Source: Steroidobacteraceae bacterium (GTDB lineage Bacteria; Pseudomonadota; Gammaproteobacteria; Steroidobacterales; Steroidobacteraceae). From it: a DNA stretch of 64,000 nt. The position numbers and the translations under genes are program-made. The stretch lies in contig JBFWQO010000003.1 in assembly GCA_050249415.1 (NCBI GenBank), positions 22,814-86,813 on the forward strand, read 5' to 3'. Below are positions 5,637 to 36,731 of this stretch, piece by piece (position 1 is the first letter of the stretch; each line of letters starts with the position of its first letter). The notes beneath the pieces are model-generated. The model had not been told where the DNA came from. It worked only from the letters and a program-made list of their open reading frames with translations, and did not search any database.

Positions 5637-6569
5637 TCAATCCGTACCGTAGGTGCGCAGGATCGGGCGCACCCCCGTCGCTTCGCGCTTCAGGAGACTG
5701 TACAAGGCGAACTCCGTGGTGCCAATACTGACGAACGTGCGCAGGCGGAAGTATTCCGACTTGTCGGCCACCTGGTACTGCAGCGTCGCCCACTGGTCGG
5801 CGGGCACCTTGGCCTGCAGGTCGGACTTCAGCGGAAAGCAGCCCGATTCCCGCGTCTTCGCGAGGCGCTCTTCGTCGAGACCGTATTCGTGCTCCCGGGT
5901 CAGCGCGTCGATCACGACGCCCGGCGCCGTGCACACATTGAGCGGCGTGCCGGGGGGCAGGGCGCTGATGTACGGGGCGAGGCGCTGGTAGCGTTCGATC
6001 CCGAAACCCGGCAATGCGAGCAATTCGCTCACGCTCACGATCGGCGCGTTCGGCGCGCGATAGGCCGGGCTCTGCGCGAGATACAGCGTATCCTCGCCGC
6101 CCTCGAAGCCGTTTGGTTCCACGTCGGCGTCGATCCAGTCCGCGAGCAGCACCGCCCATTTGCGCTCGAGCTGCAGCGTCTCGAGCAGACGCGCGAACTG
6201 CTCGATGACGTCGGCACGCGCGACGCCGTCGCCATTGACGAGATTGTTCACGTTGAACCGGCCCTGCGCGTCGTCGAGCCGCGCCTCGAGCCAGATGTCG
6301 GACCCCGGGATCAGCTCGACCGGCCCGTAGGGACGCGCCCACGCCTCGCTGTAGTCGTCCCGCTGGTTGTTCTTGCGATCCTCACGCAGCGCCCAGGCGG
6401 CGATCGCTTCCGCCGCGCCCGCGAACTGCACGCCCTGGTCGAACAGGAACGCGCCGCTCGTGCGCCGCGCGGTCATGCCGCTCTTGAATGCGACGTTCGC
6501 CGCGACGATCGTCGCCAGACCCACGAGGATGATCGCGGTGAGGAGGGCGACGCCGCGCTCGCGCTTCAT
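5637..6569 (-). CDS. gspK: Type II secretion minor pseudopilin K
   Basis: N-terminus MKRERGVALLTAIILVGLATIV is typical of GspK (no Glu+5). About 310 aa. Overlaps the gspJ stop. Confidence 0.85.
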   Translation of the reverse strand: MKRERGVALLTAIILVGLATIVAANVAFKSGMTARRTSGAFLFDQGVQFAGAAEAIAAWALREDRKNNQRDDYSEAWARPYGPVELIPGSDIWLEARLDDAQGRFNVNNLVNGDGVARADVIEQFARLLETLQLERKWAVLLADWIDADVEPNGFEGGEDTLYLAQSPAYRAPNAPIVSVSELLALPGFGIERYQRLAPYISALPPGTPLNVCTAPGVVIDALTREHEYGLDEERLAKTRESGCFPLKSDLQAKVPADQWATLQYQVADKSEYFRLRTFVSIGTTEFALYSLLKREATGVRPILRTYGTD

Positions 6570-30319: not shown

Positions 30320-31447
30320 ATGAAAACGCGATACAAGGTCCTGGGGGGAATCGTTGCGCTCACCGGTCTGGCAGCCGCGGCGCTCATGGTTTACCTGAGC
30401 CGCGACGCGCCGTGTGCGCCTGCACCCGCACTCGCGGCGGGCGCGACTCCCATGCGGGCGATCAGGTATCGCTGCTATGGCGGTCCCGAGGTGTTGCATG
30501 CGGAGTCGGTCGCGCGCCCGGTGCCCCCGGACGAGGGCGTGCTCGTGCGGGTCCGCGCCGCGTCCGCCAATCCGCTCGACTGGCACTACATGCGCGGCAA
30601 GCCCTACATCATGCGCTCGAGCAGCGGCGCCGGCGCACCGAAGGATCCTGCGTTCGGCGTGGATTTCGCGGGCACGGTAGTGGCCGTGGGGAGCGCGGTC
30701 ACGCGCTTCAAGCCGGGTGATGCAGTCTTCGGCGGGCGCACCGGCGCCTTCGGCGAATACGTGGTCGTGCGCGAGACCCGCGCGATCGTCGCGAAGCCGG
30801 CCAACGTGAGCTTCGAGCAGGCGGCGGCGGTGCCGGTCGCGGGTGTCACGGCGCTGCAGGCCCTGCGCGACAAGGGGGGATTGAAGCCCGGGCAGAAGGT
30901 GTTGATCAACGGTGCGTCGGGTGGCGTCGGCACGTTTGCCGTGCAGATCGCGAAGGTCCTGGGAGCGCGCGTGACCGGCGTCTGCAGTACCCGCAATGTC
31001 GAACTCGTGCGCTCACTCGGCGCCGACGAGGTGATCGACTACACGAAGGACGATTTCACGAAGCGCACCGGGCAATACGACCTCATCGTCGACATGGTGT
31101 CGAGCCACCCGCTGCGCGCGACGCTGAGTGCGCTGAAGCCCGACGGGGTACTCGTCATCGTCGGCTCCAATGACAAGGGGAACTTCCTCGGGCCGCTGAA
31201 GCGCAGCTTGCGGGCGATACTGCTCGCACCGTTCGTGAGCCGGCGCATTGAAAATCTGATGGCGGACCTCGACCCCGAAGACCTCGATTACCTCGCTGGA
31301 CTGATGCGCGCCGGAGCGCTCACCCCGGTCATCGATCGCCGGTTCACCCTCGAACAGGTTCCCGATGCGATGGCCTATCTCGAAACCGGGCGGGCGCGGG
31401 GGAAGGTTGTCGTCGGTATCGATGCAGGAGCGACCCCGGGCGGCTAG
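30320..31447 (+). CDS. Medium-chain dehydrogenase/reductase (quinone oxidoreductase / Zn-ADH superfamily) with N-terminal membrane anchor
   Basis: VLINGASGGVGTFAVQIAK nucleotide-binding motif. C-terminal GRARGKVVV. Start uncertain (30296 or 30320). Confidence 0.75.
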   Translation: MKTRYKVLGGIVALTGLAAAALMVYLSRDAPCAPAPALAAGATPMRAIRYRCYGGPEVLHAESVARPVPPDEGVLVRVRAASANPLDWHYMRGKPYIMRSSSGAGAPKDPAFGVDFAGTVVAVGSAVTRFKPGDAVFGGRTGAFGEYVVVRETRAIVAKPANVSFEQAAAVPVAGVTALQALRDKGGLKPGQKVLINGASGGVGTFAVQIAKVLGARVTGVCSTRNVELVRSLGADEVIDYTKDDFTKRTGQYDLIVDMVSSHPLRATLSALKPDGVLVIVGSNDKGNFLGPLKRSLRAILLAPFVSRRIENLMADLDPEDLDYLAGLMRAGALTPVIDRRFTLEQVPDAMAYLETGRARGKVVVGIDAGATPGG

Positions 31448-31480
31448 CGCGGCCTGCACCCGGTATGCTCTGATGGGGCG

Positions 31481-32293
31481 ATGACGGGAAGCGGAGCGGA
31501 CATCGAGTTGCACGGCGCGGTCTGGATGGCCGTCGGGGGCGAAAGCCTCGGCGGCGCCGGCCGCATGACACTGCTCGCGCAGATCGCCGAAAGCGGGTCC
31601 ATCACGCGCGCGGCCAAGGCGGTCGGCATGAGCTACAAGGCCGCCTGGGACGCGGTCGACAGCATGAACAATCTCGCCGGCGAACCTCTCGTCGAGCGCG
31701 TCGCCGGCGGGAAGGGCGGTGGTGGCACGCGATTGACTCCGAGGGGCGAGCGCTTGATCGCCAACTTCCGGCTCATCGAGCAGGAGCATCGACGTTACCT
31801 CGGCTCGCTCGGCCGCCAGTCCGCGGGCATCGCCGACGACTACCTCTTGATCAGGAGAATGGCGATGAAAACGAGTGCGCGAAACCAGTTCTTCGGCAAA
31901 GTCCGGCAGGTGACGCAGGGTGCCGTCAACGACGAGATCGAACTCGAAGTGGCCGGCGGGCAGCGCATCATCGCCGTGGTCACACGCGCGAGCTCGCAGG
32001 ACCTCGGCCTGCGCGTCGGCACCGAGGCCTGTGCGCTCATCAAGTCCTCATCGGTCATCCTCGTCGCGGACGATCACGACGCACGCTTCTCGGCCCGCAA
32101 CCGGCTCGCCGGCACGATCTCCCGTGTCCAGCCCGGTGCCGTCAACACCGAGGTCGTGGTGGACCTGCCGGGCGGCACGTCGATCGTCGCGGTCGTGACG
32201 AATGAGAGCAGCCGCACGCTCGGTCTCGCGGCGGGCGGGCAGGCGACGGCCATATTCAAGGCGTCGAGTGTCATCGTCGCGATTCCCGCGTAG
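31481..32293 (+). CDS. modE: Molybdate-dependent transcriptional regulator ModE (HTH plus two Mop/TOBE domains)
   Basis: LLAQIAESGSITRAAKAVGMSYKAAWDAVDSMNNLAGEPLVERVAGGKGGGGTRLTPRG. Two SARNQ/SARNR-containing TOBE repeats. Confidence 0.85.
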   Translation: MTGSGADIELHGAVWMAVGGESLGGAGRMTLLAQIAESGSITRAAKAVGMSYKAAWDAVDSMNNLAGEPLVERVAGGKGGGGTRLTPRGERLIANFRLIEQEHRRYLGSLGRQSAGIADDYLLIRRMAMKTSARNQFFGKVRQVTQGAVNDEIELEVAGGQRIIAVVTRASSQDLGLRVGTEACALIKSSSVILVADDHDARFSARNRLAGTISRVQPGAVNTEVVVDLPGGTSIVAVVTNESSRTLGLAAGGQATAIFKASSVIVAIPA

Positions 32294-32321
32294 GCGCGCC
32301 TGTCGCGCAGCTGCGCGCCGA

Positions 32322-32867
32322 TCAGTCGACGATCTTTCGCACCTCGACATTCCGCAGCCACTTGACGTGCCGCGGGCCGGTGCGGATATCCGCGGTGGAC
32401 ACGAGCGCGATGCGGCCTTCGTCGTCGGGGAGCGGCATGCCATTGCGCTCGAAGAATACGACCACGCCGTCGCCGACGGGTGAGTTGAACAGCTCGCTCC
32501 AGGAGAACACGACCTTGTAGCCGTCGCTCGCGGTCGCGATGATGGCCATCTTCTTCACGTCGTTGTGACCCGATGCGACGACCACTGCCGATTCCAGCAA
32601 ATCACGCAGGCGGACACCGCGGATATTCTCGAGCTTGTCCCTGCCCGCCCCGGACTGGCAGATCAGGGGAACCTCGTGAATCCGGTGTGACGGCAGGCGC
32701 GCGAGATCCGCAACCGTCAGGTCGAGCGGGTGCTCCACGGCACCGGTGACGCTGATCCTCGTGGTGACGAATTCATTTCCGTCAGCGCTCGCGTCTGCGA
32801 TAGCCGATGCGGCCGTGGTGCAGAGCGCGACCATTGCCAGGGCGATGCGTAGACCTGTCGATTTCAT
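32322..32867 (-). CDS. Secreted small protein resembling the molybdopterin-binding domain of sulfite-oxidase-family oxidoreductases
   Basis: Signal peptide MKSTGLRIALAMVALCTTAASAIA. HPLDLTVADLARLP, LICQSGAG, GYKVVFSWSEL, and RHVKWLRNVEV near the end. 35 nt downstream of the TonB receptor gene on the same strand. Confidence 0.6.
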   Translation of the reverse strand: MKSTGLRIALAMVALCTTAASAIADASADGNEFVTTRISVTGAVEHPLDLTVADLARLPSHRIHEVPLICQSGAGRDKLENIRGVRLRDLLESAVVVASGHNDVKKMAIIATASDGYKVVFSWSELFNSPVGDGVVVFFERNGMPLPDDEGRIALVSTADIRTGPRHVKWLRNVEVRKIVD

Positions 32868-32901
32868 GCCTCTCGACTCCTGTGTGGTGAGCGTGAATGC
32901 T

Positions 32902-34896
32902 TCAGAATTGCCAGCCGGCGTTGACGAACCAGCGGCGACCGGCGGCCGGAAAGCCGTCGGCCAGCGCGTAGTCCTTGTCGGCGAGATTGGCGACGCCGGC
33001 CTCGAACGACATGCCCTCGCGCGGCTTCGCCGACACCGTGAGGTCGAACGTCGTGAAGCCGGGTAGTTCGACGGTACTGGATGCCCAGCGCGCGCCGTCG
33101 TGCTCGACGAACAGCAGCACATCGAGGTATCGGGCCGCGTGCCACAGGGCGTGGGCCGTGAACTTGTGCTCCGGTACATCCGTCAGGCGAGTCGTCGGGT
33201 CGCTGCGGTTCTCGAGATCGGTGAACGTGTAGCGGCCGCCGACCTCGAGTTGCGCGGCCAGATCCGCACGCAGTCCCAGCTCGACGCCAGATGCGCGAAC
33301 CTGGCCGATGTTCTGTATCTGCGACAGGGTGCCGGACACATTGCGCACCGTCTGGATCCGGTCGGAAATATCACTGAAGAAGGCGGCGGCTTCGGCTTCA
33401 CCACCGGCCCAAGGCGTGCCTCGATAGCCGATCTCGTAGTTCACCGATCGCTCGGCGCGCAGGGCTGGGTTCTCGATGTACGTACCGAGGCGCTGTGAAT
33501 AGCGGTCCTTGAGTGTCGGCAGGCGCGACTTGCGCGCAATGGTCGCGTAGAAGCGCGTCACCGTGGATGCGTCATGGAAGAGCCCGACCTGGGCGTCGGT
33601 CGCGGTTTGCCTGCCGGGCAAGGAGTACGGATTGCCGAGGCTGAACACCGTGTCCGGGCGCAGTTCATGGCGCGCGACACCGAGCGACAGGGCCGTGTTC
33701 GCCGTAAAACGGATGTTGTCCTCCACGCCGACGGACAGCCACCGGTCGACGAAATTCGTGTTCTCGAGGCCGTTGGCGTCGAACTCCTCGTGTTCGTCGT
33801 CCTTGTAGTGGCCCACGATGCGCAATGCATGCGCGGCGAAACGCCGCGACTCGAGTGCGACCGAGCCGCCGGAGGTGCGATCCTTGTAGATACTGCGGCC
33901 GGTGCCGACGCTTCCCCGGCCACTCGTACGCAGCGTCGTGTACGTGTCGTTCGTGTAGGAATTCACTTCATTGTCGAAGCGGTCGTGGTACAGGCGCACG
34001 CTGAGCGATGCCGACTGGCCCAGCGTCGTTCGCGAAACGAAGTACAGGCTTTGCTTGTCCCAATAGGGCCAGCGCCAATAGCGGGCAACCGCGGGGTCGG
34101 TGGAGGGCGGTTGCCCCTTTTCTCCGTCCTGCCGGTAATAGCTGACGGCGTATTCGTCGCCCTCCCGGGGCGTGATACCGAGCTTGAGCGAAACCTTGCG
34201 GTCCTCGCGACAATCGTTGTTGCGCTGCCCGCCGTTCTCCGTGGCGGTCGGACGAAAACCCGACGACAACGACATGCCGTCGGCCTCGAGCCAGGACACG
34301 CCGCCTTGCAGGTACCACGGCCCCTGATTGCTGCCAAGATTGCCCGATGTCTTGCGCTCCTGCCCGGATCCGAACCCGACGGCCACATCGCCTTCGACGG
34401 CATCGACGGGCTTGCGCGAAACGAGATTGATCGCCCCGCCGAGCGTATTGGCGCCATAGGCGACGGAGCTGAAGCCCTTGGCGACCTGGATCGCGGCCAG
34501 ATCCGCGGTCGTGAAGCGGTTGAAGTCGACGTAGCCGTCGTAGGGGACGTACACGGGAATGCCGTCGATGAACAACGGCACCTGGCGGGCATCGAAGCCG
34601 CGAACCGAGATCATCGCCTCGTTGCGTGAATTGGTGGACAGCGTGACGCCGGACAGCAGGTTGAGTGCCGTGCCGATGTTGTCCCGGTTGAAGAGGCGAA
34701 TCTCGTCCTGGCCGATCCACGACGCGACCGGATCTTCGGCGAATTCACCCGCCCGAATGCGTTCGGCGACTACGGTGATCGTCCCGAGCGCGAACGGTTC
34801 CGCGCCGCTGGATTGCGCCTGCGCCACGAGCGGCATCGAACCCAGCGCCAGTGTGATGATTGTTCCCAAGCGCAGAGCGCCCCCCGCATGATTCAT
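32902..34896 (-). CDS. TonB-dependent outer-membrane receptor
   Basis: Signal peptide, plug domain (ISVRGFDARQVPLFIDGIPVY), long beta-barrel, C-terminal ...RRWFVNAGWQF. SD GGGAG 5 nt before the ATG at 34896. Confidence 0.9.
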   Translation of the reverse strand: MNHAGGALRLGTIITLALGSMPLVAQAQSSGAEPFALGTITVVAERIRAGEFAEDPVASWIGQDEIRLFNRDNIGTALNLLSGVTLSTNSRNEAMISVRGFDARQVPLFIDGIPVYVPYDGYVDFNRFTTADLAAIQVAKGFSSVAYGANTLGGAINLVSRKPVDAVEGDVAVGFGSGQERKTSGNLGSNQGPWYLQGGVSWLEADGMSLSSGFRPTATENGGQRNNDCREDRKVSLKLGITPREGDEYAVSYYRQDGEKGQPPSTDPAVARYWRWPYWDKQSLYFVSRTTLGQSASLSVRLYHDRFDNEVNSYTNDTYTTLRTSGRGSVGTGRSIYKDRTSGGSVALESRRFAAHALRIVGHYKDDEHEEFDANGLENTNFVDRWLSVGVEDNIRFTANTALSLGVARHELRPDTVFSLGNPYSLPGRQTATDAQVGLFHDASTVTRFYATIARKSRLPTLKDRYSQRLGTYIENPALRAERSVNYEIGYRGTPWAGGEAEAAAFFSDISDRIQTVRNVSGTLSQIQNIGQVRASGVELGLRADLAAQLEVGGRYTFTDLENRSDPTTRLTDVPEHKFTAHALWHAARYLDVLLFVEHDGARWASSTVELPGFTTFDLTVSAKPREGMSFEAGVANLADKDYALADGFPAAGRRWFVNAGWQF

Positions 34897-34940
34897 CGGC
34901 TCCCTTTCTTCGAATCGTTGAATGGCCCGTGAGGAGGGCT

Positions 34941-34964
34941 CGTAATATACAGTCGTATATAACG
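34941..34964 (-). promoter_or_regulatory. Candidate ModE operator upstream of the TonB-dependent receptor
   Basis: The minus strand reads CGTTATATA-CGACTG-TATATTACG, 45-68 nt upstream of the receptor ATG. One mismatch to the recalled ModE consensus CGnTATATA-N6-TATATAnCG. Confidence 0.6.
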
Positions 34965-35123
34965 ATAGTGGAGCCGGACTGCGGCGATATTGATCTGTGT
35001 CAGACCCGCCGGACCTCGACCCGCGTGCGCTGCCTGGCAGAGACCCCACACGATCGATGCGGCTGGCTCGGGACCAAGCCGTTCGCTCTACTTCGCATAA
35101 TGTATATTATGTTAAATTCCATT

Positions 35124-35163
35124 CATAAATAAGGGGCCGCCGACCGGAAATGGCCAGCGGCCC
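35124..35163 (-). terminator. Probable intrinsic terminator of yceI
   Basis: GGGCCGC...GCGGCCC stem with additional inner pairs. On the minus strand it is followed by the U-rich CTTATTTAT. 31 nt after the yceI stop. Confidence 0.5.
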
Positions 35164-35193
35164 TGAGAAGCAGCCGCACCTGTATCGCGTGCG

Positions 35194-35784
35194 TCAGTCC
35201 TGGCGGTTTGCCTCGACCTGGATCTGCAGCTCGACTTCCTGCTTGAAGCCGTAGGCGGCGCCATAGCTGATCCCGAAGTCGCTGCGATTGAACTCGGCCG
35301 ATGCATCCGCACCACACACTTCCTTTTTCGACGCCGGATGCGGCTTGCACAGGAACTCGTCGATCTCGAGCGTCAGCGGTCTGGTTACGCCGTGCAGCGT
35401 CAGCGTGCCGACCACCTTCCCCGGCTTGCCGTCCTCGAAATCGGCGAGCGTGCCCTTGTAGACCGCCGTCGGGTATTTCGCGACATCGAACATGTCGGGG
35501 CCCTTGGCATGCTCGTTGAGTTCGTCGTTGCCGAAGTCGATCGACGCGGCGTCGACCGTTATCTCCACGGTACCGGTCTTCGCTGCCTGGTCCATCACGA
35601 TCGTGCCGGAGGCCTTGTTGAACTTGCCGCGCCAGACCGACAGGCCACCCATGTGGTCCGCCTCGAAGCTCGGGTGCGTGTGGTTCGGGTCGATCTGGTA
35701 GGTCACCGGCCCGGCATAGGCCGTCGCCAGCAACAACGCGAACACACTGCCGCCCAGTGCGGCCTTCCGTGACGATACTTGCAT
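35194..35784 (-). CDS. yceI: YceI-family periplasmic (polyisoprenoid-binding) protein
   Basis: Signal peptide. [29 protein letters not shown]. About 196 aa after trimming to MQVSSRK. Confidence 0.85.
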
Positions 35785-35852
35785 GCAAACCTCCTCGTTT
35801 GACTTCGTTTCGCGCGGGCTGCCGCGCAGGCTACCGGAGATCACGGGCAACT

Positions 35853-36731
35853 TCACGTGAAGCGCCCGGAACTGTAGTCGTCGACGGCCTGCACGATCTG
35901 TGCCCGCGTGTTCATGACGAACGGCCCGTATTTCACCACCGGTTCACCGAGCGGCCTGCCTGCGACCAGGATGAAGCGCGCCGCTGCCACAGGCGTTGCA
36001 ACCCGTACGCGATCGCCAGGCGCGAGCACCGCGAGATCGCCTCGCACCACGTCCGCATCCCGGTCGCCAACCCGAGCCTGGCCTTCGAAGACGTAGAGGA
36101 ACGCATTGTGGTCCGCCGGCAGCGCGTGCTCGAAGCTCGCGCCCTTCGGCAGCGCAACGTCGAAGTACAACGGGTCGATCGCGATGCCGGAGACCGGGCC
36201 GCGTGTGACGGTGCCATCCGCGTCGATATGCTCGCCGGCGATCACGCGCACCTCGGCACCACCCGCCGCGCGCACGAGCGGGATACGCTCGGGCGCGATG
36301 TCCTGGTAGCGCGGCGCCGTCATCTTGTCCTTCGCGGGCAGGTTCACCCACAGCTGGAAGCCGCGCATGCGGCCCTCGTCCTGTTCGGGCATTTCCGAGT
36401 GGACGATGCCGCGGCCGGCCGTCATCCACTGCACGCTGCCCGCGACGAGCAGGCCCTCGTTGCCCTGGTTGTCGCGATGGCGCATGCGCCCCTCGAGCAT
36501 GTAGGTCACGGTCTCGAAGCCGCGATGCGGGTGGCTCGGAAAGCCGCCGATGTAGTCGGCCGACGAATCCGAACCGAACTCGTCGAGCAGCAGGAACGGA
36601 TCGAGATCGCCGAGCGCGCGCCCGCCGATCACGCGCGTCAGCTTGACGCCGTCGCCGTCGCTGGTCGCCTGGCCGCGCACGAGCTGCATGACTTCGCGCG
36701 TCCCCGAGACAGTCTGGTTGAGGTTTTTCAT
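35853..36731 (-). CDS. Pirin-family protein
   Basis: [19 protein letters not shown]...[15 protein letters not shown]. 292 aa. Only the 3' part of ORF 35853..37679 is supported. Confidence 0.9.

Follow-up and report, generated by a model that had tools for sequence, protein, structure and literature searches.

By the textbook account, the molybdate pathway begins at the periplasmic protein ModA; to our knowledge, how molybdate gets through the outer membrane in soil and freshwater, where it is present at nanomolar or picomolar levels, is essentially uncharacterised. A locus in a 64,000-nucleotide stretch of a Steroidobacteraceae genome (GenBank assembly GCA_050249415.1, contig JBFWQO010000003.1, positions 22,814 to 86,813; hereafter the window) raises the question of whether a dedicated system exists for this step: a gene for a TonB-dependent receptor, preceded by a sequence resembling a binding site of the molybdate regulator ModE, is followed by a gene for a small secreted protein with a sulfite oxidase (SUOX) fold and then by modE itself. 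A preliminary description of the locus had read it as a molybdate-repressed outer-membrane uptake system, and this reading is supported by the conservation of the box, by the consensus it shares with modA operators, by the linkage to modABC and modE, and by the geometry of the operator. It is rather likely that the receptor operon is a molybdenum (Mo)-starvation-induced module for outer-membrane acquisition of Mo or tungsten (W), acting upstream of ModABC.

The box lies 45-68 nt 5' of the receptor ATG at 34896, read from the minus strand, and both its position and its inverted repeat were as the preliminary description had given them. The consensus given there was also that of the literature: the E. 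coli-type operator is ATCGNTATATA-N6-TATATANCGAT (atCGnTATATA-N6-TATATAnCGat) in the passage of PMC545781 that quotes Studholme & Pau 2003. The window box differs at one position from CGNTATATA-N6-TATATANCG, and the AT of the extended consensus (atCG...) precedes its left CG. Within the 64-kb window it was the sole match to the consensus, even when up to 3 mismatches were allowed; none of 100 dinucleotide-preserving shuffles of the window produced any match, and the chance expectation at one mismatch or fewer, calculated analytically from base composition, was 1.6e-5 per window. The box has a GC content of 33%, against 59% in the 44 nt between box and ATG and 66% in the 120 nt upstream, so that the description of the leader as otherwise GC-rich holds for these flanks but not for a 49-nt patch on the minus strand at 35085-35133, directly after the yceI terminator, in which GC falls to 26%. 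A palindrome in this patch, CATAAT-ATAC-ATTATG (~35090-35110), was considered as a second regulatory site and dropped, being without conservation in the closest relatives. No divergent gene uses the region 5' of the receptor, and the intrinsic terminator of the upstream yceI gene sets the receptor apart as a separate transcription unit, of which it marks the upstream limit.

In order to place the box in a comparative setting, genome contigs were scanned with a profile of the small-protein family (alignment A1), which yielded 80 loci with 8-kb flanks (labelled L001 and so on; 1.16 Mb in total), the closest to the window being from Steroidobacteraceae metagenome-assembled genomes (MAGs). In 67 of these loci, a receptor orthologue (about 50-86% identity) was the gene directly 5' of the small one. 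The preliminary description had named absence of the palindrome from orthologous receptors as a reason to abandon its reading; a ModE-type box (up to 3 mismatches) preceded the receptor in 56 of the 61 loci in which the receptor was directly upstream and the DNA before it readable. These 56 span about 24 taxon labels of the Beta- and Gammaproteobacteria, among them Steroidobacteraceae, Chromatiaceae, Pseudomonadales, Nitrotoga, Sulfuricella, Sterolibacterium, Rhodocyclaceae, Aquabacterium, Herminiimonas, Undibacterium, Massilia, Duganella, Pseudoduganella, Rugamonas and Janthinobacterium. In two of the five loci without a receptor box (L012, L039), the receptor directly follows modC within the mod operon, and in four loci that have no receptor (L047, L051, L074, L080) the box is found immediately 5' of the small gene. 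When the window upstream region was aligned with those of four Steroidobacteraceae-type relatives (alignment A2), only the box and the ribosome-binding site were conserved, the flanks being unrelated; two relatives, L003 and L007, have a tRNA gene (both ~5705-5780) that ends about 70 nt 5' of the box, and the receptor operon therefore sits in differing chromosomal contexts, with only the box travelling along.

The boxes were also strongly confined to gene starts. At up to 2 mismatches, 98 of the 105 boxes in the related loci were located at 5' ends, namely those of the receptor (78), modA (12), the small gene (5) and modE (3). The operator consensus at modA in the related genomes is CGyTATATA-N6-TATATTrCG, and this consensus is common to receptor and modA boxes. 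The T of the right half-site TATATT, which counts as the single mismatch against the E. coli consensus noted in the preliminary description, is the preferred base at modA (91%), as is the TG that precedes it; by the standards of its relatives, the window site is thus a modA-type operator. Dissimilar modABC operators would also have counted against the preliminary reading; in the relatives, neither such a difference nor an absence of the palindrome was seen. From these comparisons, the sequence in front of the receptor is with high confidence a genuine ModE operator.

Janthinobacterium loci showed a tandem arrangement, with two ModE boxes about 69-90 nt apart (for example L064:5755-5847). Of the two, the distal one (TGTATATT) resembles the boxes at modA and overlaps with the predicted -10; the proximal one, a perfect palindrome, is situated in the leader, about 20-45 nt 5' of the start codon. 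A second box of this kind was absent from the window at up to 3 mismatches. The double boxes suggest cooperative or double repression, the window having only the distal (modA-like) type.

E. coli ModE represses modA and activates dmsA, napF and moaA, and because it acts both ways the direction of regulation at the receptor operon needs a separate argument. In the related loci the proximal box ended 104-185 nt before receptor residue 40, or ~13-50 nt before the start codon; in L058, where a perfect box is followed by AAAGGTAGCGGGA-ATG, its end is 13 nt from the ATG, as against about 20-50 nt in the other loci. There is thus no space for a promoter downstream of the box. Upstream of it, at least eight genera with TATATT-type boxes have TTGnnn exactly 17 nt 5' of TATATT; the -35 hexamers include a perfect TTGACA (L034), TTGACC (L013), TTGAGC (Janthinobacterium) and, among the closest relatives of the window, TTGGAT (L001) and TTGGCT (L002), and at two modA genes TTGCAA stands 17 nt before TATATT. 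This spacing argues that the right half-site is itself the -10 element and that the left half-site fills the promoter spacer. The modA boxes of the same loci are placed with identical geometry. In the window, the corresponding elements are those of Table 1, with a transcription start predicted near 34937. We reasoned that the distance from box to start codon, the overlap with the promoter, the same geometry at modA, and the occasional position of the receptor within a modABC operon all favour repression, and that ModE-molybdate probably represses the receptor operon, with induction under Mo limitation. A passage of PMC11672702 likewise describes ModE as a repressor of Mo uptake.

Linkage to the mod genes was assessed by clustering all open reading frames of the loci all-vs-all and annotating representatives. 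A recurrent layout was found, in which a box, modA-modB-modC, a further box, the receptor, the small protein, a NifQ-like gene and modE follow one another. The modA genes pass the TIGR01256 cutoff (192 bits). In L012, L016, L018 and L039, modC and the receptor overlap or abut; L054 and L067 carry modABC, the small gene, in part the NifQ-like gene, and modE, without a receptor. Frequently the receptor and small genes lie within modABC or are translationally coupled to it, with modE nearby; in 34 of the 80 loci modE adjoins the small gene. No metallophore biosynthesis genes were conserved in the related loci, and the apparent conserved downstream genes of clusters 29 and 36 were discarded as Arg-rich antisense artefacts lacking a Pfam match.

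More distant members of the small-protein family point in the same direction. An exhaustive profile search returned about 100 cluster representatives at E<=1e-30, nearly all of 160-220 aa. In P0259 and P0272 (421-422 aa; several independent contigs), and also in P0209, a ModA-family binding protein is fused to the SUOX-like domain; in P0259 and P0272 the score of the ModA part is up to the cutoff of TIGR01256 and not far from that of NF002917, and in the fusions Ser replaces the Cys of the SUOX-like domain. P0272 (L083:6001-7269) is the final gene of a Mod/Tup-type ATP-binding cassette (ABC) operon beside a cluster for a tungsten-type aldehyde:ferredoxin oxidoreductase. In P0160 (L088:5001-7519), a distant member, gene order is reversed, the small gene running 4 nt into the TonB-dependent receptor downstream of it, in the company of ThiF/MoeB-rhodanese, MobA-like (NTP_transf_3) and molybdopterin oxidoreductase genes and without an E. 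coli-type ModE box. The ModA fusions and the contexts of P0272 and P0160 are independent lines tying this SUOX-fold clade to Mo/W acquisition. The P0272 operon also includes a regulator with HTH_1 and SBP_bac_11 domains. A Variovorax SUOX-like::TOBE fusion, which ends the L090 mod operon, was not used as evidence; it has no signal peptide and a transposase is adjacent, so that it is possibly a remnant of rearrangement.

Table 1. Position of the features of the receptor-modE locus, in window coordinates.
Feature	Coordinates	Strand	Details
ModE operator	34941..34964	-	CGTTATATACGACTGTATATTACG = CGTTATATA-CGACTG-TATATTACG; inverted repeat, 6-nt spacer
Predicted -10 (operator right half-site)	34944..34949	-	TATATT; assigned from the spacing in relatives; TG at 34951-34950
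Weak -35 candidate	34967..34972	-	TCCACT, 3/6 positions; 17 nt 5' of TATATT; assigned from relatives
TonB-dependent receptor, 664 aa	32902..34896	-	Signal peptide + Plug + barrel; Pfam PF07715, PF00593
Small secreted SUOX-fold protein (Oxidored_molyb), 181 aa	32322..32867	-	PF00174, 44 bits (cutoff 24); Cys70
modE	31481..32293	+	HTH_1 + two TOBE/Mop domains + two SARN motifs; Pfam, NCBIfam
Intrinsic terminator of upstream yceI	35134..35163	-	12-bp GC-rich stem, then T-run

The three genes were borne out as given in the preliminary description (Table 1). The Plug and barrel domains of the receptor score 66 and 117 bits, both over cutoff, and its ATG has a Shine-Dalgarno sequence, AAGGGAG (34906-34900), in front of it; a public gene call starts the protein at a TTG at 34869 instead. 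All 31 NCBIfam matches were far under their cutoffs (best TonB-hemin, 127 vs 317), and the receptor falls into no substrate-defined family of that collection. Its kinship to TonB-dependent receptors of solved structure is remote, the closest being CirA and BtuB with E~1e-14, for the most part in the plug. The small gene does follow closely, at a distance of 34 nt from the receptor stop rather than the 35 originally counted, and its product has PF00174 as its only Pfam match, in keeping with the likeness to the molybdopterin domain of sulfite oxidase-family enzymes that had been proposed, and holds one Cys, in LICQSG. The modE gene is convergent with it across a gap of 28 nt, as described. Its product is full length, with the T/S/K molybdate-binding positions known from E. 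coli ModE, and scores 104 against TIGR00637 ModE_repress (cutoff 98.5) and 146 against TIGR00638 Mop (cutoff 55); at 199 against the enterobacterial equivalog PRK10676 (cutoff 369), it is not the enteric orthologue. The flanks of the locus have no molybdenum link, with LysR, pirin and YceI on one side and a Zn-dependent dehydrogenase, a multicopper oxidase and a cytochrome c on the other.

The small protein bears the public annotation 'molybdopterin-dependent oxidoreductase'. Its family is strongly constrained, with about 60% identity between classes and 48 invariant positions in 26 sequences. An AlphaFold2 model (predicted local distance difference test score, pLDDT, 78) retrieved SoxC, YedY, SorA, nitrate reductase and sulfite oxidases in Foldseek (E~1e-6, probability 1.0); the best match normalised to target size was PruR (7kom; template modelling score, TM, 0.72; root-mean-square deviation 3.4 Å). 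When PDB sequences were searched with the family profile, the only matches were to sulfite oxidase from plants and Thermus, and these were weak (24 bits for the nearest enzyme of solved structure); PruR was not retrieved, the relation to it being structural only. The Cys is kept at PL(I/V)CQSG in 118 of 120 homologues; in a hidden Markov model alignment to 1ogp it lies 2 residues off Cys98, and a one-gap shift superposes the two; the model has pLDDT below 50 at residues 71-74. The motif GPRHVKWL aligns with GARSVKWL of plant sulfite oxidase.

Periplasmic enzymes that carry the molybdenum cofactor (Moco) receive it in the cytoplasm and are exported folded by the twin-arginine translocation (Tat) pathway. 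The window protein has no RR at its N-terminus (MKSTGLRIALAMVAL...), and 112 of the 120 homologues are likewise without a twin-arginine motif, the other 8 having a Tat-like SRRxxLA; an N-terminal CxxCH cytochrome c domain is present in 22 of the 120. The lack of a Tat motif, together with the cytochrome c and ModA fusions, which imply Sec export, leads us to argue that the domain arrives in the periplasm cofactor-free. Once there, it probably binds something, candidate ligands being molybdate or tungstate, an Mo complex delivered by the receptor, or Moco or a pterin; the cytochrome c fusions suggest redox chemistry in some lineages.

Three other accounts of the locus were weighed against that of a ModE-repressed receptor and SUOX-fold operon. 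The box might be an AT-rich promoter element that resembles an operator by chance, or might belong to another regulator, with modE nearby by coincidence; a strict sigma-70 scan was negative, so that an AT-rich box could itself be the promoter, and modE is convergent rather than divergent, its adjacency alone being weak evidence. Set against this are an expectation of about 1e-5 per window and the CG...CG flanks and 6-nt spacer, which are kept across two proteobacterial classes and are common to modA operators. The comparative data effectively refute this account, to which we give hardly any credence. A more substantial alternative, which we still consider unlikely, is that the operon is activated by ModE and encodes a molybdoenzyme: the small protein would be a minimal Moco-containing oxidoreductase of YedY/SorA type with a cytochrome c redox partner, the receptor would import its substrate, and ModE-molybdate would turn the operon on when Mo is available, as with dmsA, napF and moaA in E. 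coli. The passing PF00174 score, the Cys at the putative Mo-ligand hairpin, the match between GPRHVKWL and the plant motif, the Tat-like signals in a few homologues, and the cytochrome c fusions, which recall SorAB or animal sulfite oxidase, all fit. They conflict with an operator that covers the -10 and spacer and ends too close to the start codon to leave room for a downstream promoter, and with the co-operonic arrangement of these genes and modABC in several genomes, given that Mo represses modABC in the systems studied (PMC11672702, in which ModE is presented as a repressor). The general lack of a twin-arginine motif, in the window protein included, and the fusions to a c-type cytochrome or to Sec-exported ModA, which imply unfolded export, are also at odds with cytoplasmic insertion of Moco.

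Slightly less probable again is the salvage of cofactor or pterin from other cells. Analogous receptors exist in BtuB for B12, in the haem receptors and in PqqU for pyrroloquinoline quinone. By analogy, the receptor would import Moco, molybdopterin or an Mo-pterin breakdown product; the apo SUOX-fold protein would capture this ligand, and the Mo, freed possibly through oxidation by a fused cytochrome c, would enter ModABC. The fold is a Moco-binding one with the putative Mo-ligand Cys kept, the protein would be apo on arrival for want of a Tat motif, and control by Mo starvation is predicted alongside the linkage to ModABC; moreover, small periplasmic SUOX-fold proteins that bind free pterins have a precedent in PruR (PMC11194511), the best size-normalised match in Foldseek. 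This account rests purely on inference, however; free Moco is very labile, as is generally known, the ModA-fused members have Ser for Cys, and no inner-membrane transporter for pterin or Moco is conserved in the related loci.

Several observations tell against the ModE-repressed uptake operon as well. The strict sigma-70 scan covered 34800-35250 and found no promoter, the window -35 is weak (TCCACT), and the promoter assignment in the window consequently rests on comparative spacing. The same operator at modABC is seen in relatives only, the 64-kb window containing no modABC genes and those of this genome lying outside it; besides ModBC, no inner-membrane partner is conserved across the loci; and the distant family contexts (L083-L090) lack an E. 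coli-type ModE box at up to 3 mismatches. About 20 of the loci are from Janthinobacterium, and the loci are therefore less independent than their raw numbers suggest, although the occurrence in two proteobacterial classes does not hang on this genus. Finally, the conserved putative Mo-ligand Cys, the cytochrome c fusions and the 8 of 120 Tat-like signals would equally suit a true molybdoenzyme, although it would be odd for a molybdoenzyme to be induced when Mo is lacking. With these points taken into account, a ModE-repressed operon of receptor and SUOX-fold protein that feeds ModABC is the best explanation as a whole, and a reasonably likely one.

According to this explanation, when molybdate is plentiful ModE-molybdate, supplied by the convergent neighbour gene, would bind the inverted repeat and cover the promoter spacer and -10, thereby keeping RNA polymerase off, as happens at modABC. 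Under molybdate scarcity, ModE would leave the DNA and the receptor operon would be expressed; the receptor, energised by TonB, would let a species of molybdenum (or tungsten) through the outer membrane, and the small Cys protein would take up or process this species in the periplasm and hand molybdate to ModA/ModBC. What the sequences show is the operator and its conservation, its identity with the modA operators of relatives, its placement with respect to promoter and start codon, the linkage to modABC and modE, and the fold of the small protein; which way the regulation runs, what is transported and what the small protein does biochemically are inferred. More tentatively, and with somewhat more doubt than belief, the locus can be taken to encode the first dedicated TonB-dependent outer-membrane gate for Mo/W together with a Mo-trafficking protein of a new functional class of the SUOX fold, exported cofactor-free, in which the ancestral Mo site, made up of the Cys and a basic pocket, would capture the incoming species or process it by redox chemistry before molybdate is handed straight to ModA; that species might be molybdate, an Mo-chelate, thiomolybdate or even scavenged Moco.

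The system resembles modABCD/ModE of E. coli in its regulator, with a helix-turn-helix and two Mop domains, in its operator consensus (as quoted in PMC545781) and in the overlap of operator and core promoter, and in many relatives of the window operon modABC belongs to the same operon or locus. It differs in that the controlled genes here are those of a receptor and a SUOX-fold protein, not of an ABC importer, in the local right half-site TATATT, and in the two boxes, about 70-90 nt apart, that relatives often have.

Metal-repressed TonB-dependent transporters are known beyond iron, for zinc (Zur-ZnuD), nickel (NikR-FrpB4) and copper (OprC/NosA). Common to these and to the present locus is a cytoplasmic metal sensor that represses an outer-membrane gate feeding a binding protein and an ABC importer; here, the sensor would be ModE, the substrate an oxyanion (molybdate or tungstate) or an Mo complex, and the SUOX-fold partner, which appears obligatory, is without a counterpart there. 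Seen in this way, the module would be a TonB-dependent uptake system under repression by a metal sensor, in which both the metal and the periplasmic partner are new. Azotobacter makes catecholate 'molybdophores', for which we know of no dedicated receptor; the present receptor family is a candidate for that role, not a match. In Pseudomonas aeruginosa, ModA secreted through type VI secretion (T6SS) docks on IcmP, as cited in a passage of PMC11734730. The problem addressed is the same in these proposed routes, namely nanomolar Mo across the outer membrane under limitation, whereas the locus described here is conserved without T6SS or metallophore biosynthesis genes.

For the SUOX-fold protein, the nearest parallel is PruR, described in the text of PMC11194511 as a periplasmic pterin-binding SUOX-fold protein of Agrobacterium and Vibrio (PDB 7kom, 7kp2) that replaces the Mo-ligand Cys by Trp (PW motif) and has a truncated hairpin, and whose gene is in an operon with that of DcpA, a GGDEF/EAL diguanylate cyclase/phosphodiesterase. 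Both proteins are small (about 130-180 aa), secreted and almost wholly SUOX fold, and PruR offers a precedent for Moco-free ligand binding in the periplasm; they differ in that the present family keeps a putative Mo-ligand Cys and has for neighbours not DcpA but a TonB-dependent receptor, modABC, a NifQ-like gene and modE. With SorAB, SoxCD, YedY/MsrP and the plant and animal sulfite oxidases the family shares the fold, the C-terminal G-x-R-x-V-K-W-L and, in some members, an association with cytochrome c, and it has a Cys at the putative ligand hairpin. It differs from these molybdoenzymes in having no dimerisation domain and usually no Tat signal, and in a gene context of Mo uptake and regulation rather than of sulfur or sulfoxide metabolism.

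The pairing of receptor and SUOX-fold protein was not described in the full-text literature searched; curated regulon databases such as RegPrecise were outside this search and may list the receptor as a ModE target. A Nitrotoga genome preprint counts the TonB-dependent receptors of that organism as siderophore receptors. Merged with modABC in many Beta- and Gammaproteobacteria, the pair is a concrete candidate for the passage of scarce Mo across the outer membrane, and as culturable and genetically tractable genera carry it (Janthinobacterium, Massilia, Duganella, Undibacterium and Herminiimonas), the outer-membrane question is directly testable. If our reading is true, Mo/W would join the list of TonB-dependent substrates, with a bearing on the environmental Mo limitation of nitrate reduction and nitrogen fixation, and the sulfite oxidase fold would appear, for a second time after PruR, beyond classical Moco catalysis; should the Mo-trafficking role hold, a fold that holds Mo for catalysis would have been recruited for Mo traffic.

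In 23 loci, a NifQ-like gene (PF04891, 45 bits; for example L027:8414-9049) lies between the small gene and modE (L010, L011, L013, L019, L021, L023, L025-L027, L029, L030, L034-L038, L040, L042, L044, L045, L067, L073, L077); it is absent from the window. These proteins lack the canonical NifQ motif Cx4Cx2Cx5C, of which only a Cx2Cx5C-like remnant is present, and have no NCBIfam match, and are therefore named NifQ-like only, on the basis of Pfam. The gene also occurs in genera not known as diazotrophs (Massilia, Undibacterium, Pseudoduganella), where it hints at a further Mo-handling step, and its product may act in such a step in the cytoplasm. In a Sterolibacterium MAG, two tandem small genes, one plain and one fused to cytochrome c, are situated between the receptor and the NifQ-like gene (L021:3754-5166).

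The modE-modA spacer of Variovorax sp. PAMC 28711 (CP014517; L090:2720-2835) holds a variant palindrome, TCGCTATTCC-ATCAAT-GAATAGCGA, which is not of the TATATA type. In the window itself, the GC content of 31000-36000 is 0.63-0.66, under that of the flanks (0.69-0.72); GC at third codon positions is 0.76-0.80 in the receptor, small and yceI genes, as compared with 0.85-0.90 in most window genes and 0.87 in modE, and from this dip the segment from the receptor and small genes to yceI may have been acquired horizontally.

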